Origin: a virus
Taxonomy: Duplodnaviria; Heunggongvirae; Uroviricota; Caudoviricetes
Length of the DNA: 5,680 bases
IMG/VR virus record: IMGVR_UViG_2703719354_000026
Strand: one strand, 5' to 3'
The position numbers were made by a program, and so were the translations under genes. Below, piece by piece: positions 2,102 through 5,680 of this stretch; the stretch's first letter is position 1, and each line of letters starts with the position of its first letter. The notes under the pieces were generated by a model, which was not told the origin of the DNA, made no database searches, and saw only the letters and a program-made list of their open reading frames with translations.

Positions 2102-2324
2102 GGTGTACCCCTCCGCATTTTTTTTCGTTAGAAATAAGCGCTCTTCTTTCCTGTTCATCGCTCAGGAATACGCAGACCTCACCGCTAAGGCGTTTAAGTA
2201 AGCCGATGATTGCCCCTGATTCGCTGTCGGTCATCATGCCAGGGTAATCCTCTGCCAGTGCGCAAATAACTTCGATTTGGTGGGCGCGTTCTGCTGCCTG
2301 TTGTAGTGTGATTTCCTGACTCAT
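2091..2324 (-). CDS. Hypothetical small acidic protein (77 aa)
   Basis: ATG at 2324..2322 overlaps the stop of the upstream ORF (ATGA). AGGGGG lies about 8 nt upstream, inside the conserved 19-bp junction repeat. Confidence 0.55.
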   Translation of the reverse strand: MSQEITLQQAAERAHQIEVICALAEDYPGMMTDSESGAIIGLLKRLSGEVCVFLSDEQERRALISNEKKCGGVHHVQ

Positions 2325-2782
2325 AAGCCTACCCCCTGACGAATACGGGCGACAAAAATCAGATGTGCGTGCGGCAGCTGGGCGCGGGCTTCGCGTTCAG
2401 TGGCTGCGGTAACGGTGTAAATATCAATGCTGCTGTGGTGGCACTGCATAAAGCGCCAGACAAAGTAAGGGCGTGCGGATACAGCCATGTGAAAGGCTCC
2501 CAGATGAATTTTAAGGAGTCTCGCTACTACGCTGCTAAACATGGTGGCGAGACGTAACAGGGTTAGCAGACTGGTCATCTGGAAACCAGCGAGCACAAAG
2601 GCTCCCCCGTTACGCCCCGCCATAATGCGGGTATGGGTAGGTTTACGGACACAAAAAAACCGCTTATCGGATGTGGGCGGCTGTCCGCCAGATGTATTCA
2701 GGCTGCTAAACCCGGTCGCCATGTGGGCGACGGGGGAAGCATACAGCCCCGTGATAATTTTTTGCAAGCGGTTTTTACGCAT
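2321..2782 (-). CDS. Hypothetical protein (153 aa); the C-terminal 55 aa (from internal ATG at 2488) is a paralog of ORF 2775..2972 and may be translated separately
   Basis: ATG at 2782 with AGGGG about 8 nt upstream, overlapping the upstream ORF's stop by 8 nt. Internal ATG at 2488 has GGGAG 8 nt upstream. C-terminal domain carries 'FVWRF', 'TEREAR' and 'ARIRQG' motifs. The N-terminal part has a hydrophobic stretch ('AFVLAGFQMTSLLTLLRLATMFSSVVA'). The ORF-track version starts further upstream at 2824 (GTG). Confidence 0.45.
   Translation of the reverse strand: MRKNRLQKIITGLYASPVAHMATGFSSLNTSGGQPPTSDKRFFCVRKPTHTRIMAGRNGGAFVLAGFQMTSLLTLLRLATMFSSVVARLLKIHLGAFHMAVSARPYFVWRFMQCHHSSIDIYTVTAATEREARAQLPHAHLIFVARIRQGVGL
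2333..2351. repeat. Copy 1 of an exact 19-bp direct repeat (plus strand cccctgacgaatacgggcg) at a gene junction
   Basis: Identical 19-mer at 2333..2351 and 2790..2808. On the minus strand it encodes the C-terminal 'ARIRQG' of one protein and supplies the RBS of the next gene. Confidence 0.9.
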
Positions 2783-2972
2783 GATGTGACCCCTGACGAA
2801 TACGGGCGGCGAATACAGCAACACAACCGGACGGGCAACGGCTACGCGCTTCGCGTTCCCTCCAGGCGGTTACGTGGATGATTTGAGATTCTCCGGCACT
2901 CAGTGCCAGAAAACGCCACACAAAGGCCGTTTGTGTGTGTACAAGGTGTGGTATATGATTTACGGCAACCAT
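2775..2972 (-). CDS. Hypothetical small protein (65 aa), first gene of the coupled operon; paralog of the C-terminal domain of ORF 2321..2782
   Basis: ATG at 2972..2970 with AGGAG 5 nt upstream. The ORF-track start at 3074 would force coding through a GC hairpin and has no RBS. Motifs 'FVWRF', 'REREAR', 'ARIRQG' are shared with the paralog, and the differences in those motifs are synonymous. Confidence 0.55.
   Translation of the reverse strand: MVAVNHIPHLVHTQTAFVWRFLALSAGESQIIHVTAWREREARSRCPSGCVAVFAARIRQGSHHA
2790..2808. repeat. Copy 2 of the exact 19-bp direct repeat at a gene junction
   Basis: Same 19-mer as 2333..2351; flanking sequence is diverged. Confidence 0.9.
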
Positions 2973-3002
2973 AACGGCTCCTAGTTTACGTTGTTGGTTA
3001 GA

Positions 3003-3045
3003 AGCCCCGTTACTGCTCCTACAGTGCGGGGCTTTGCTTTTTGTG
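3003..3045 (+). terminator. Terminator-like hairpin with T tract in the divergent intergenic region (plus-strand orientation)
   Basis: Stem agccccg (3003..3009) pairs with cggggct (3027..3033), with inner actg/cagt pairs, followed by TTGCTTTTT. The reverse strand lacks a U tract. Confidence 0.35.
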
Positions 3046-3053
3046 TTGATTGT

Positions 3054-3098
3054 GTGTAATGTGTCATTACACATAAATACATTACATGAGGTGTAATT
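3054..3098. promoter_or_regulatory. Operator array: four TGTAAT-type half-sites in alternating orientation, overlapping candidate divergent promoters
   Basis: GTGTAATG (3054..3061) and CATTACAC (3065..3072) form a perfect 8+3+8 inverted repeat. CATTACAT (3080..3087) and GTGTAATT (3091..3098) form a second pair. Spacings are 11/15/11 bp. The array sits just upstream of the RHH gene start (GTG 3102) and overlaps its GAGG RBS. Confidence 0.55.
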
Positions 3099-3101
3099 AA
3101 C

Positions 3102-3281
3102 GTGTCAACACACAAAAACGAAAGGCGTGGTAATCCTCCGTTCCAGTTCCGTTTAGATCCTGACTTACGGGAAAAGATGGAAAAGGCACAACAACAGGAC
3201 GGCGATGATTCTCTTGCTGCCTGGATAAAGCGAATAATCCGCAAAGAATTACAGCAACGCGGCATAGAACCCAAAGGATAA
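3102..3281 (+). CDS. Arc/MetJ-type ribbon-helix-helix (RHH) DNA-binding protein, 59 aa, GTG start
   Basis: GTG at 3102 with GAGGTG 8-9 nt upstream; in-frame stop immediately upstream at 3087..3089. Translation 'VSTHKNERRGNPPFQFRLDPDLREKMEKAQQQDGDDSLAAWIKRIIRKELQQRGIEPKG' follows the Arc/Mnt/CopG pattern (N-terminal beta strand 'FQFRL', then two helices). Below the ORF-track length threshold, so not listed there. Confidence 0.75.
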   Translation: MSTHKNERRGNPPFQFRLDPDLREKMEKAQQQDGDDSLAAWIKRIIRKELQQRGIEPKG

Positions 3282-3338
3282 AAACTATCAGCGCCGTGGT
3301 GTGAGGAACTACGGCGCATTTCTTTACAGGAGTAGACA

Positions 3339-3524
3339 ATGAACAACGAAGAATTACGGGAAATCGCATTATCCATACTTGAAAGACAGGTAGAAAAAAA
3401 ATTAAGAGAAATGGATGAAATGCCTGACCATGAACAGGAAGCAAGGCCAAAAAGATTTGCCCTTGAGGATTTTCTTAAAAATTGCCCAAGAAAGATGAGA
3501 TCGTGGCGTTGTTGTCCGCCCTGA
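3339..3524 (+). CDS. Hypothetical 61-aa protein co-transcribed with the RHH gene (partner protein, function unknown)
   Basis: ATG at 3339 with AGGAG (3328..3332) 6 nt upstream. It starts 57 nt after the RHH stop and is followed by an intrinsic terminator. Acidic helical N-terminus and a Cys/Pro-rich basic tail ('CPRKMRSWRCCPP'). Confidence 0.6.
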   Translation: MNNEELREIALSILERQVEKKLREMDEMPDHEQEARPKRFALEDFLKNCPRKMRSWRCCPP

Positions 3525-3600
3525 TGACAGATTTGCCAACCAGCCAAAAATGTGGCATCGTTGTCGATGCATAGTGTAATCAACATGTATATCATATTTT

Positions 3601-3627
3601 TGCGACCATCATAGGTCGCATTTTTTT
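3601..3627 (+). terminator. Rho-independent terminator of the RHH operon
   Basis: Perfect 7-bp stem tgcgacc (3601..3607) / ggtcgca (3614..3620), 6-nt loop, then seven T (3621..3627). On the minus strand the hairpin is followed by A-rich sequence, so it is plus-specific. Confidence 0.75.
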
Positions 3628-3664
3628 GCCTGTAATCCGGCAATTGTGGCGCTTCTTCACACAG

Positions 3665-3674
3665 TTGATATAAT
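3665..3674 (+). promoter_or_regulatory. Candidate extended -10 promoter (TGaTATAAT)
   Basis: Exact TATAAT at 3669..3674 preceded by TG at 3666..3667. No good -35, which is acceptable for extended -10 promoters. Confidence 0.3.
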
Positions 3675-3680
3675 TCCAAT

Positions 3681-3748
3681 GCTCATATTTATTTTTTGTG
3701 CAGCAGGTTAATCGTTCACAAAGGCGCTCAGGTAACTGGGCGCTTTTT
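3681..3748 (+). ncRNA. Candidate small RNA of about 68 nt (hypothetical; promoter-to-terminator unit without an ORF)
   Basis: Bounded by the extended -10 element at 3666..3674 and the hairpin + U-tract at 3723..3748. No ORF with an RBS in between. Confidence 0.25.
3723..3748 (+). terminator. Rho-independent terminator-like hairpin
   Basis: Stem ggcgctcag (3723..3731) / ctgggcgc (3736..3743) with one G-U pair, GTAA loop, then TTTTT (3744..3748). Confidence 0.5.
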
Positions 3749-3872
3749 GTTATGCCTGAAAAACCCCAATTTTGTTGTTTTTCAGTTTCACCAGGGCGAA
3801 CGAATCCCCGCCCACGTTCTGGCGTATATTCAATCTTCATGGTTATAGCTCTGTGTTCAGATGATTGATGTG

Positions 3873-3897: not shown

Positions 3898-4086
3898 TTA
3901 ATGAACTGCCTTGCAGCTATCCTTCCAGGCCAGAACCTCGGATAAAGACCAGCCAACGGAACGACCGCCAAGTTTACGACGTGATGGGAATTGTCCGGCC
4001 TTTTCCAGGCGGTAGCGACACGTACGGCTAAGGCCGGTTAGTTTTTTGCATTCTTTTTCACGTATAAACCGATCAGTGCTTAACAC
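3898..4086 (-). CDS. alpA: AlpA-family (prophage CP4-57 regulatory protein-type) small HTH transcriptional regulator / excisionase-like protein, 62 aa, GTG start
   Basis: Translation 'LSTDRFIREKECKKLTGLSRTCRYRLEKAGQFPSRRKLGGRSVGWSLSEVLAWK' matches the AlpA pattern (RFLRL..TGLSRST.YRL...G.FP....LG.RSVGW...E...W). GGGGG lies 6 nt upstream of the GTG. There is no in-frame ATG upstream (stop at 4114..4116). It sits directly downstream of the integrase, as is typical. Confidence 0.9.
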   Translation of the reverse strand: MLSTDRFIREKECKKLTGLSRTCRYRLEKAGQFPSRRKLGGRSVGWSLSEVLAWKDSCKAVH

Positions 4087-4450: not shown

Positions 4451-5680
4451 TTATTTTCTTCTGGCTACTGGTAGTGCGGTTACGTTTTCATGTGTTCCCG
4501 CCAGTATCCCTAACCGCTCCATCCACATATCCAGCGCATTGCGTTTAGCATCCAGATAACGGGAATGATTATAAACTCGCTGCATTCCTGGCATCTGGTG
4601 GCCTGTAAGCTGCTCCACGACGTGAGGATCCACGCCTAAATCGTTCAGCATCGTTGTAAAGGTGCGCCGGATGTCATGTAGTGACCAGTGAGGGTGATTT
4701 AGCCTCCTGTGCGCTAATCTGCCGTACTGCGACACGCTTGTTTCCTGTTTCACTTCCCCCAGCAATAAGCCCGTGTGCCTGTTCTGCTCCACCAGCTGCG
4801 TGACGAACGGCAGTATTGCTTCCGGTATGGGCCGGAATATGGCTACCTTCGTTTTGCTGTGCTCCTTCGGAACAGTCCAGAGCATTTCGGTAAAATCCCA
4901 CTCGCCGATCTCCGATAACCTAAGTTCGACCGTCCGGCATCCGAACACAATCAGGAGGCGGATTAGCGCGATGTAGTAGGGGGAGAATATTTTTTTGTCC
5001 AGTGCCTGCAATAATTCGCCAAGTTCTTTGTTGCTTAAGACACGCTCGCTTATATCCGGTTTTTTCCCAACGTCCGCCACACTCATATCATCAAGAACGT
5101 TGCTGATTGCATAGCGCCGCTTCCGGCAGAACTTAAGCGCCTGCTTGCATGTCTGTAGCAGGAACCCGGCGGAAACAGGGGCTTGCTTTGCCACCCGATC
5201 AAAACAGGCCAGCCAGTGCCGTAGCTCGCATTTATCCAGCGGCATAGGGCCAATGTGCTGTATTACGTGATTATTTAGCCGCTTTTTCAGTGGGTCATAA
5301 TCCACACGGTTTTCCTTTGCGTACGACTCAAGCCAGTAGGTGAGCGCATCACCAACCGTTACGGGCTTTAACGCTTCCTGTACGGTGTAATTCATCTCAT
5401 GACGTGGATTTTTCCCCTCTGCCAGCCATGCGCGACACTGGGCGGCTTTTTCCCTGGCTGATTTCAGGCTCAGATCAGGATAATTTCCCAGCTTAATGCG
5501 GTCCGGTGGTGCCCCCCTTCCCGTTCCGGCCCTGTAAGTGAAATACCAGGTTAAAAGGCCACTGGTTGAATGCCTGACGCTCAGGTTTCCACCGTCATTA
5601 AGAAAGGCTGTTTTTTGGGCGGGTGTGCCGTTGATTTTCCTCAGCTGTGTATCGCTCAGTTTGTTAAGTGCTCTGCTCAT
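4451..5680 (-). CDS. int: Tyrosine site-specific integrase, P4-type (N-terminal arm-binding domain plus C-terminal catalytic domain), 409 aa
   Basis: ORF-track ORF. The N-terminus 'LSDTQLRKINGTPAQKTAFLNDGGNLSVRHSTSGLLTWYFTYR' matches the P4-like integrase arm-binding domain. The C-terminus carries 'HDIRRTF', 'LTGHQ' and 'RVYNHSRY' (catalytic His/Arg/Tyr of tyrosine recombinases). The start codon coincides with the last 3 nt of the window, so the true start could lie further upstream. Confidence 0.95.
   Translation of the reverse strand: MSRALNKLSDTQLRKINGTPAQKTAFLNDGGNLSVRHSTSGLLTWYFTYRAGTGRGAPPDRIKLGNYPDLSLKSAREKAAQCRAWLAEGKNPRHEMNYTVQEALKPVTVGDALTYWLESYAKENRVDYDPLKKRLNNHVIQHIGPMPLDKCELRHWLACFDRVAKQAPVSAGFLLQTCKQALKFCRKRRYAISNVLDDMSVADVGKKPDISERVLSNKELGELLQALDKKIFSPYYIALIRLLIVFGCRTVELRLSEIGEWDFTEMLWTVPKEHSKTKVAIFRPIPEAILPFVTQLVEQNRHTGLLLGEVKQETSVSQYGRLAHRRLNHPHWSLHDIRRTFTTMLNDLGVDPHVVEQLTGHQMPGMQRVYNHSRYLDAKRNALDMWMERLGILAGTHENVTALPVARRK

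Follow-up and report, generated by a model that had tools for sequence, protein, structure and literature searches.

The window analysed here, a stretch of 5,680 nucleotides from a Caudoviricetes virus record (IMG/VR IMGVR_UViG_2703719354_000026), contains an array of four TGTAAT/ATTACA hexamers (3054-3098) next to a small plus-strand gene (3102-3281) for a predicted ribbon-helix-helix (RHH) protein of 59 residues. The comparison with related loci suggests that two of the four repeats belong to sites of this putative repressor and that the other two serve as -10 boxes in overlapping, opposed promoters. The predicted promoters, PR and PL, direct the RHH gene rightward and an icd-like, replication and packaging operon leftward, respectively. 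We consider it probable that the array forms the heart of a genetic switch carried by a capsid-forming phage satellite resembling the phage-inducible chromosomal islands (PICIs), with the RHH protein acting on two palindromes over PR and PL. An autoregulatory RHH operator lying over both promoters is supported by the sequence comparisons.

In the proposed mechanism, a dimer of the RHH protein would bind two imperfect 12-bp palindromes with the consensus GTGTAATTACAC. The distal site would cover approximately positions -8 to +4 of PR (TTGCTT-17-TAATGT) and +1 to +12 of PL, lying over both predicted start points. The proximal site, whose exact extent we infer, would fill the PL spacer beside the -35 element (TTGACA-18-TAATGT) and cover the ribosome-binding site of the RHH gene; its occupancy would block the polymerase at PL. 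With the sites occupied, PL, which is predicted to lead into an operon of icd-like, C4 RNA, replication and capsid genes, would be off, shutting down satellite replication and packaging, and PR would be under negative autoregulation.

The repeat array

The clustering of the hexamers is non-random. In the window as a whole, TGTAAT occurs nine times against 3.27 expected, a number reached in none of 200 shuffles, and four copies within 44 bp never arose when the window was shuffled 2000 times with its dinucleotides preserved and arose twice in 5000 shuffles of the AT-rich segment 3030-3130. The existence of the array at 3055-3097, as given in a preliminary description of this DNA, is hence beyond chance expectation, and several of its further details were borne out. 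GTGTAATG (3054-3061), tgt and CATTACAC (3065-3072) form a perfect 19-bp inverted repeat (8+3+8). The copies of TGTAAT start at 3055 (+), 3066 (-), 3081 (-) and 3092 (+), so that the start-to-start distances of 11, 15 and 11 bp hold as plain arithmetic, and the array does overlap the ribosome-binding site of the RHH gene, as read directly from the sequence (Shine-Dalgarno GAGGTG, 3088-3093, +; GTG start, 3102). The second repeat, CATTACAT (3080-3087), gag and GTGTAATT (3091-3098), is separated from the first by seven bases, ATAAATA (3073-3079), and is complementary only in the inner six of its eight positions. One large palindrome was ruled out as a description of the array, because the hexamers are oriented -> <- <- ->.

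Candidate operators in related loci

For comparison, 80 related loci were fetched from species-representative genomes, 41 with the beta-strand of the window's RHH protein (class A) and 39 with divergent RHH proteins. Column conservation was determined over 40 class-A upstream regions, and the anchored and scored class-A set comprised 37 loci. As an ungapped comparison of columns was thrown off by a 1-bp indel in eight loci, a MAFFT alignment was used instead.

The 110 bp upstream of the class-A RHH genes align almost without gaps. Conservation is concentrated in blocks, namely a hairpin with TTG (3034-3036) after it, GTAATGTGT (3056-3064), ACACA (3069-3073), ACAyTAC (3079-3085), GTGTAATT (3091-3098) and GTGTCAAyACACA (3102-3114). 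The block GTGTAATT is conserved to 85-97% in the 40 sequences, and the neighbouring non-coding columns are variable. The candidate distal operator, GTGTcATTACAC (3061-3072), has half-site 2 as its right arm and matches the palindrome GTGTAATTACAC at 11 of 12 positions. With at most one mismatched pair, this palindrome stands 41 or 40 bases 5' of the start codon (centre at -35/-34) in 29 of the 37 anchored class-A loci, the window included, and four loci from four genera (L009, L015, L020 and L028) have the perfect GTGTAATTACAC. The candidate proximal operator, GTGTAATTAACg (3091-3102), holds half-site 4 and overlaps the ribosome-binding site and the start codon; its left half and centre are conserved, and its centre lies 30 bp from that of the distal site in the window. 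When up to two mismatches are allowed, the consensus palindrome is found in the 6-kb class-A loci almost only at -41 and 0. The likely operators of class A are two compact, imperfect 12-bp palindromes with the consensus GTGTAATTACAC, at 3061-3072 and 3091-3102.

The preliminary description had instead proposed a dimer-of-dimers binding mode with the 11/15/11 spacing. In that reading the four TGTAAT half-sites are equivalent and paired as 1+2 and 3+4, and RHH dimers 11 bp apart form a dimer of dimers on each repeat. In favour of this reading, 11 bp is the usual spacing for Arc-type tetramers, the window's 19-bp inverted repeat has no mismatch, and the family palindrome GTAATTAC has GTAAT as one of its halves. 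Conservation of the half-sites in homologous islands, which had been put forward as a check, was uneven: most class-A loci retain GTAAT at sites 1, 3 and 4, but half-site 2 is variable (CATTAC, CATCAC, CACCAC, AATGAC, CAGTAC and others in the MAFFT alignment). Half-site 4 is conserved among the class-A loci. The variants at half-sites 1 and 3, TAACAT, TAATAT, TAGTGT and TATGGT, keep TAnnnT but not GTAAT, a 1-bp deletion falls between half-sites 3 and 4 in eight relatives, and the four-site layout is absent from the sister classes. Four equivalent half-sites are therefore improbable, and the dimer-of-dimers arrangement was not upheld. Because their variants retain TAnnnT, half-sites 1 and 3 are read as -10 hexamers, and we take the TGTAAT copies at 3055-3060 and 3081-3086 to be mainly the putative -10 hexamers of PR and PL. 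TGTAAT is indeed half of the predicted recognition palindrome of the family; its partner abuts it, TGTAAT and ATTACA overlapping as TGTAATTACA, and does not lie 11 bp away.

Further TGTAAT copies near the terminator of the RHH operon, mentioned in the preliminary description, are present at 3575-3580 and 3631-3636. The first lies in GTGTAATCAAC (3574-3584, +), just 5' of the terminator, where 10 of 11 bases match the proximal site GTGTAATTAAC; the chance probability of this match is estimated at roughly 0.1, and the status of this copy is uncertain. The second, CTGTAATCC, stands directly after the terminator. The region of both copies is specific to close relatives.

Variants of the candidate operators and the beta-strand

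In the sister classes, the palindromes are compact as well (10-12 bp), are 27-36 bp apart and occupy the same two positions as in class A. One is centred 32-42 bp 5' of the start codon and the other approximately 5 bp 5' of it, abutting ATGTCAA, so that the second site falls in the PL spacer. Each beta-strand is accompanied by palindromes of its own. Two GGTAATTACC-type sites, 30-31 bp apart and with the proximal one perfect, go with the strands SPQYQMRL or SPPFQMRL, two copies of TTGTAATTACAA with DQYQIRL, GGTATATACC plus a partial second copy (GTATACC) with PQFPMRL, and the GTGTCATACAC and GTGTCAGACAC types with NKQIALRV or NKQIAFRV. The partition of the palindromes by the three residues predicted to face the DNA is clean. 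A core of the GTAATTAC type was found in 46 of 58 loci with the triads PQR or QQR and in 0 of 16 with QAR or QNR, the GTGTCAGACAC type in 13 of 15 QAR loci and in 0 of the 58 PQR/QQR loci, and the lone QPR locus has GTATATAC twice. The Escherichia coli O157:H7 island has two copies of GGTAATTACC in front of an unannotated RHH homologue of 57 residues.

These data support the view that the operator sequence changes along with the DNA-reading residues, as would be expected for the RHH protein's own operator. The assignment of the array as the operator of the RHH gene in the preliminary description holds to this extent, since the palindromes track the RHH beta-strand across relatives, while its four equivalent half-sites are not supported. 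The same data bear on the view that the array has no dedicated binder and consists of promoter hexamers in AT-rich DNA, or that its binder is a different factor, for instance AlpA or a protein of the helper phage. In line with this, -10 elements fall on two of the four hexamers, and in related islands AlpA has been the sole regulator demonstrated by experiment. However, perfect palindromes specific to each class are present at two fixed positions per locus and follow the RHH beta-strand, and those within the spacer are not explained by promoter function alone, which makes this view very unlikely.

Two side observations concern the variation of the protein. In three relatives (P0103, P0106 and P0109) the C-terminal half is near-identical to that of the window protein from AWIKRIIRKELQQRGIE onwards, and the N-terminal arm and beta-strand are wholly different, which suggests that the predicted DNA-reading head of RHH proteins is exchanged as a module. 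Some islands have tandem RHH paralogues of different specificity classes (L025, 2769-3168; L033; L044; L062; L075). In L025, a QAR-class gene lies directly 5' of a class-A gene that retains its own GTGTCATCACAC site.

Predicted overlapping promoters

The leftward promoter PL is predicted with good evidence. Its -35 element, TTGACA (3103-3108, -), lies within codons 1-3 of the RHH gene, and its -10 element, TAATGT (3079-3084, -), overlaps half-site 3, where the variants TAGTGT and TATGGT keep TAnnnT. TTGACA-17/18-TAnnnT is the top minus-strand promoter in 75 of 78 scored sequences and in every class, the -10 elements of the other classes (TATTTT, TATTAT and TATGAT) all conforming to TAnnnT. Between classes the spacer sequence is wholly different and the promoter hexamers are kept. 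The serine codon within the -35 element is TCA in nearly all loci. We judge PL to be well supported, because TTGACA is retained even in loci that actually start at an ATG further downstream, where these bases are not translated.

The rightward promoter PR is a consensus-level prediction and less certain than PL. Its putative -35 element, TTGCTT (3034-3039, +), has a conserved TTG and lies in the T-tract of an upstream terminator, and its -10 element, TAATGT (3057-3062, +), overlaps half-site 1, where TAACAT and TAATAT keep TAnnnT. TTGnnn-17-TAATGT is the top plus-strand promoter in 18 of 37 scored class-A sequences, and in the window itself the top score on this strand goes to GTGTAA-18-TACATT (6.5) instead. 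Equivalents of PR stand equally far from the start codon in the sister classes, for example TTGTTT-17-TAAAAT. Two other plus-strand candidates were rejected: TTGATT at 3046-3051 is not conserved, and TACATT at 3078-3083 has no conserved -35 partner.

The predicted starts, at approximately 3069 (+) and 3072 (-), nearly coincide, so that the polymerase footprints at PR and PL would overlap almost completely. Because of this overlap of the RNA polymerase sites, PR and PL would also exclude each other. The preliminary description had placed the array over the -10 elements of two divergent promoters. The putative -10 hexamers are indeed overlapped, but the promoters are not simply divergent.

An inverted repeat of 18-20 nt, CTTTGCTTTTTGTGTTGA (3032-3049) and TCAACACACAAAAACGAAAG (3105-3124), brackets the whole region, one arm lying in the T-tract of the terminator and the other in codons 2-8 of the RHH gene; the left arm is not conserved beyond the closest relatives.

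The RHH protein

The product of the gene at 3102-3281 (+; 59 residues, GTG start) was already called an RHH protein in the preliminary description, an assignment borne out by several lines of evidence. The protein matches PHROG 228, 'Arc-like repressor', with an E-value of 2.1e-6 (1.5e-6 for the O157:H7 homologue). The AlphaFold2 monomer model (mean predicted local distance difference test score of 78.7) shows helices at residues 20-33 and 38-52 after an extended N-terminus; the beta-strand is not called in it, as expected for a monomer. The top 18 Foldseek matches in the PDB are RHH or RHH-like proteins (NikR, ParG, TacA, PutA, MazE9 and plant TCP domains), all with E>1. In hhalign comparisons, for which the sequences of Arc and Mnt were entered by hand, PPFQFRL pairs with PQFNLRW of Arc (E 0.0026) and PHFNFRM of Mnt (E 0.0007), which places P13, Q15 and R17 on Q9, N11 and R13 of Arc and on H6, N8 and R10 of Mnt. 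Those residues of the Arc and Mnt strands contact bases. A sequence search of the whole PDB gave no significant match to Arc or Mnt. The product is supported as an Arc/Mnt-like RHH protein, with DNA binding predicted.

Homologues fall into 117 clusters in Enterobacterales, Orbaceae and Pasteurellaceae, most of them named 'hypothetical', and the gene was confirmed at 135 loci in species-representative genomes. It is often without RefSeq annotation, and other genomes name it 'hypothetical' or 'YlcI/YnfO family'. In E. coli FORC_042 and O157:H7 RefSeq leaves it unannotated, and an antisense open reading frame is called instead. This reading frame, given as 'hypothetical protein' or pseudo 'Icd-like protein' by the Prokaryotic Genome Annotation Pipeline (PGAP), spans the RHH operon at 2981-3679 (-) in the window, 9182-10042 in L001, 3327-3920 in L002 and 2827-3420 in L083, whose RHH gene lies at 2804-2977. 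In FORC_042 it extends to 2981-3841, a difference in length that is due to one T, at 3620 in the run of the terminator, by which alone the two records differ. It was rejected as a real gene and is regarded as a shadow reading frame, because its translation is of low complexity and the RHH reading frame on the plus strand is conserved in 117 clusters.

The second gene of the rightward operon is an open reading frame for 61 residues (3339-3524, +) that varies between islands and for which no Pfam family was found; an intrinsic terminator, identified by a terminator scan, follows at 3601-3630 (+). The two genes could be taken for a type II toxin-antitoxin pair, with the RHH protein as antitoxin to the 61-residue protein and the palindromes serving the autoregulation of the pair and thereby the stability of the island. 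In favour of this, antitoxins are common among RHH proteins, relatives are called 'HicB family' in some sources, and antitoxin models of the VapB and HicB type are matched weakly, below threshold. Yet tblastn places neither version of the downstream gene beside the RHH gene except in L003, alpA directly follows the RHH gene in Xenorhabdus loci, the protein has 59 residues only and is without a C-terminal toxin-binding extension, and the candidate proximal operator lies within the spacer of a conserved leftward promoter. As the partner gene is variable or absent among islands, a toxin-antitoxin pair was rejected, and we consider such a function of the palindromes most improbable.

Evidence against the proposed switch

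Several observations weigh against the switch proposed here. Both proposed class-A operators are imperfect palindromes, and the right arm of the proximal one is degenerate. At the distal site the variation is confined to the centre, between GTGT/ACAC arms that do not vary, and a single dimer that reads the centre would predict the opposite. The true proximal site, or a third site, could instead be GTGTCAAyACACA, which is conserved at the start codon. This block contains another GTGT-N4-ACAC element, GTGTCAACACAC (3102-3113), at distances of 11 bp to 3091-3102 and 41 bp to the distal site, which would be an alternative or additional proximal site. On the promoter side, the scoring of PR is ambiguous in several loci, the conservation of its TTG could reflect the terminator tail instead, and a general promoter scan of the window called neither PR nor PL, the -10 candidates being weak and consensus matches only. 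For the RHH protein, no Pfam family was found at E-values up to 0.1, a sequence-profile search of the PDB was without significant match (best E 0.25, at chance level), and the Foldseek matches of this very small domain lack statistical significance. The RHH gene and its putative sites are adjacent and co-inherited, and the match between strand and palindrome classes represents few independent events or lineages. Finally, published work has shown that AlpA is required for the induction of the related island EcCIEDL933 and of EcCICFT073. Because of this requirement in EcCIEDL933, the RHH protein would not be the whole story. Speculatively, AlpA and the RHH protein could interact by way of transcription that continues from alpA over the RHH unit and into PL.

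The invariant arms point to a variant of the same switch, in which the operator is GTGT-N4-ACAC(A), with copies at 3061-3073 and 3102-3114 that are offset by 41 bp. In this case the start codon and the PL -35 element would be overlapped by the proximal site, and GTGTAATT (3091-3098) would be an auxiliary half-site one helical turn away. A 21-nt direct repeat (D2; 3057-3077 and 3098-3118, 81% identical) covers both places, at which the GTGT/ACACA arms are invariant and the centres variable. The block at the start codon is conserved even where it belongs to the 5' untranslated region, 34 of 40 class-A RHH genes start with GTG, which completes the GTGT arm, and in Orbaceae loci GTGTCAATACAC is a palindrome with two mismatches. 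However, TGTCAACAC follows the start codon also in the classes with GGTAATTACC operators, much of the conservation is explained by the -35 element and the coding sequence, and in all other classes the proximal palindrome stands just 5' of the start codon. We regard this variant as unlikely and prefer the two palindromes at 3061-3072 and 3091-3102.

A candidate cis-antisense RNA

Immediately left of PR, the plus strand carries a structure (2966-3045) that is conserved across all RHH classes and genera. It consists of hairpin 1, whose loop holds an anti-Shine-Dalgarno sequence, then the motif UGGUUAGA and finally a terminator hairpin (3002-3034) followed by a T run (3035-3045), and it is complementary to the ribosome-binding site and start codon of the first icd-like gene. 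In the alignment 93.6% of the cells are paired and 13 of 18 pairs show compensatory changes, a level reached in 0 of 500 shuffles; controls with a slid pairing partner gave 36-51% paired cells. The covariation signal is specific to the plus strand, on which many pairs are U-G or G-U and would be mismatches on the minus strand. A promoter-like consensus match, TTGTGT (2931-2936)-17-TATGAT (2954-2959), is conserved as TAnnnT approximately 45 nt 5' of the hairpin. No Rfam family matches the 2966-3045 candidate. The structure looks like a cis-antisense RNA of approximately 80 nt directed against the ribosome-binding site of the first PL gene, similar to sar of phage P22.

Island context

By its gene content, the window is the int-alpA(-RHH-icd) end of a capsid-forming PICI-like satellite. 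A tyrosine integrase gene (4451-5680, -), assigned from its open reading frame and the PGAP annotation of a related island, runs off the end of the window, and alpA (3898-4086, -) was identified by Pfam PF05930 (E 5.7e-17). The first gene of the predicted PL operon is icd-like (2775-2972, -; Shine-Dalgarno 2978-2982; NCBIfam NF033153, 60.2 bits; also annotated by PGAP in L001), and a second icd-like gene lies at 2321-2485 (-; NF033153, 55.3 bits). Between them, Rfam places a C4 module (2540-2744, -), composed of the C4 antisense RNA (2540-2627; 72.7 bits against a gathering threshold of 45) and its c4-a1b1 target (2695-2744; 45.5 bits, just below the threshold of 46.7). A weak isrK-like match was also noted within 2321-2744 (-). 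The C4 module was found in one (L064) of 20 related loci scanned with Rfam and neither in L003, the closest Shigella relative, nor in the O157:H7 island, and the window's C4 RNA had no blastn match in the related loci. As it occurs in one of 20 loci, we regard C4 as a variable insert and not as part of the conserved switch.

An island 99.3% identical to the window adjoins roxA in E. coli FORC_042. Leftward, its PGAP annotation lists genes for DUF4222, a RepA-type helicase, SSB, PerC, an HK97-type capsid, protease, portal, HNH and small terminase. With int, alpA, replication genes and its own HK97-type capsid, portal, protease and small terminase genes, and with no tail or lysis genes, this island holds the gene set of capsid-forming PICIs. 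Its layout is the organisation described for such islands, for example EcCIEDL933. The O157:H7 island, with the same organisation as this prototype, has the same RHH module.

In the gap that separates the terminator of the RHH operon from the 3' end of alpA, an element at 3665-3750 (+) starts with an extended -10-like sequence, TGATATAAT (3665-3673, +), followed by a terminator-like hairpin with a T run (approximately 3720-3750; weak Rfam match to sau-6072, 24 bits). It may be a small RNA convergent with alpA.

Comparison with known systems

The YlcI/YnfO family of lambdoid prophage proteins (NF041551) is weakly matched by the RHH protein, and PGAP gives that name to some E. coli copies; the score, however, is 20 bits and below the family cut-off of 30 bits. 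To our knowledge, this family has no characterised function.

In the immI region of phage P22, two protein repressors and the antisense RNA sar control ant (PMC2629481). The region described here is similar in having a small RHH repressor candidate, with its beta-strand in register with Arc and Mnt, and a candidate small antisense RNA covering the ribosome-binding site of the first gene of the putatively repressed operon. The proposed action of the RHH protein is what Arc and Mnt do at Pant and Pmnt of P22. The candidate operators lie within or just downstream of a strong predicted promoter that overlaps the opposed promoter of the repressor gene, as the P22 operators reportedly do; their positions are said to have been described by Vershon and colleagues in 1987. 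In contrast to P22, which has two RHH genes (Arc and Mnt), there is one here, and its putative operators are compact palindromes of 10-12 bp, compared with 21 bp for Arc and 17 bp for Mnt. Furthermore, the host element is a phage satellite, and the operon starts with an Icd-like gene and leads to satellite replication and capsid genes. Among the proteins scanned, no ant homologue or match to an Ant family was found; the first leftward genes are Icd-like, small genes without known function, DUF4222 and the RepA-type helicase.

With its C4 RNA, a1b1 target and two icd-like genes, the leftward operon also resembles the immI operon of phages P1 and P7 and the CI RNA immunity of P4. The P1 operon is controlled by the C1 repressor, whereas control by the RHH protein is proposed here, and the C4 module is a variable insert in these islands.

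The closest likeness in gene content (int, alpA, a RepA-type helicase, an HK97-type capsid module and a position adjoining roxA) is to the Gram-negative PICIs and capsid-forming PICIs such as EcCICFT073 and EcCIEDL933. The 2018 founding paper on Gram-negative PICIs left open whether a global repressor exists. In the PICI literature searched, the RHH protein, its operators and PL are not described, and the activator AlpA is the only regulator given for Gram-negative PICIs. The RHH protein, a conserved Arc-like protein predicted to act on the promoter of the main operon, is a candidate for this so far missing repressor, and the sites described above are targets for mutagenesis. More speculatively, it might be the master repressor of Gram-negative and capsid-forming PICIs, assisted by a hitherto undescribed sar-like antisense RNA, divided into island-specific immunity classes and overcome by AlpA-driven transcription or a helper factor, a proposal that we put forward tentatively and consider doubtful. 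If it were true, the RHH protein would silence all of the replication and packaging operon while the island is integrated, the variants of beta-strand and operator would define the immunity classes, and leftward transcription driven by AlpA, or a helper-phage factor, would overcome the RHH protein during induction. The natural variants of beta-strand and operator would also be a ready series for studies of RHH recognition specificity. As a class of mechanism, an autoregulated RHH repressor of the Arc/Mnt type is ordinary; new are this member and its place in the satellite.

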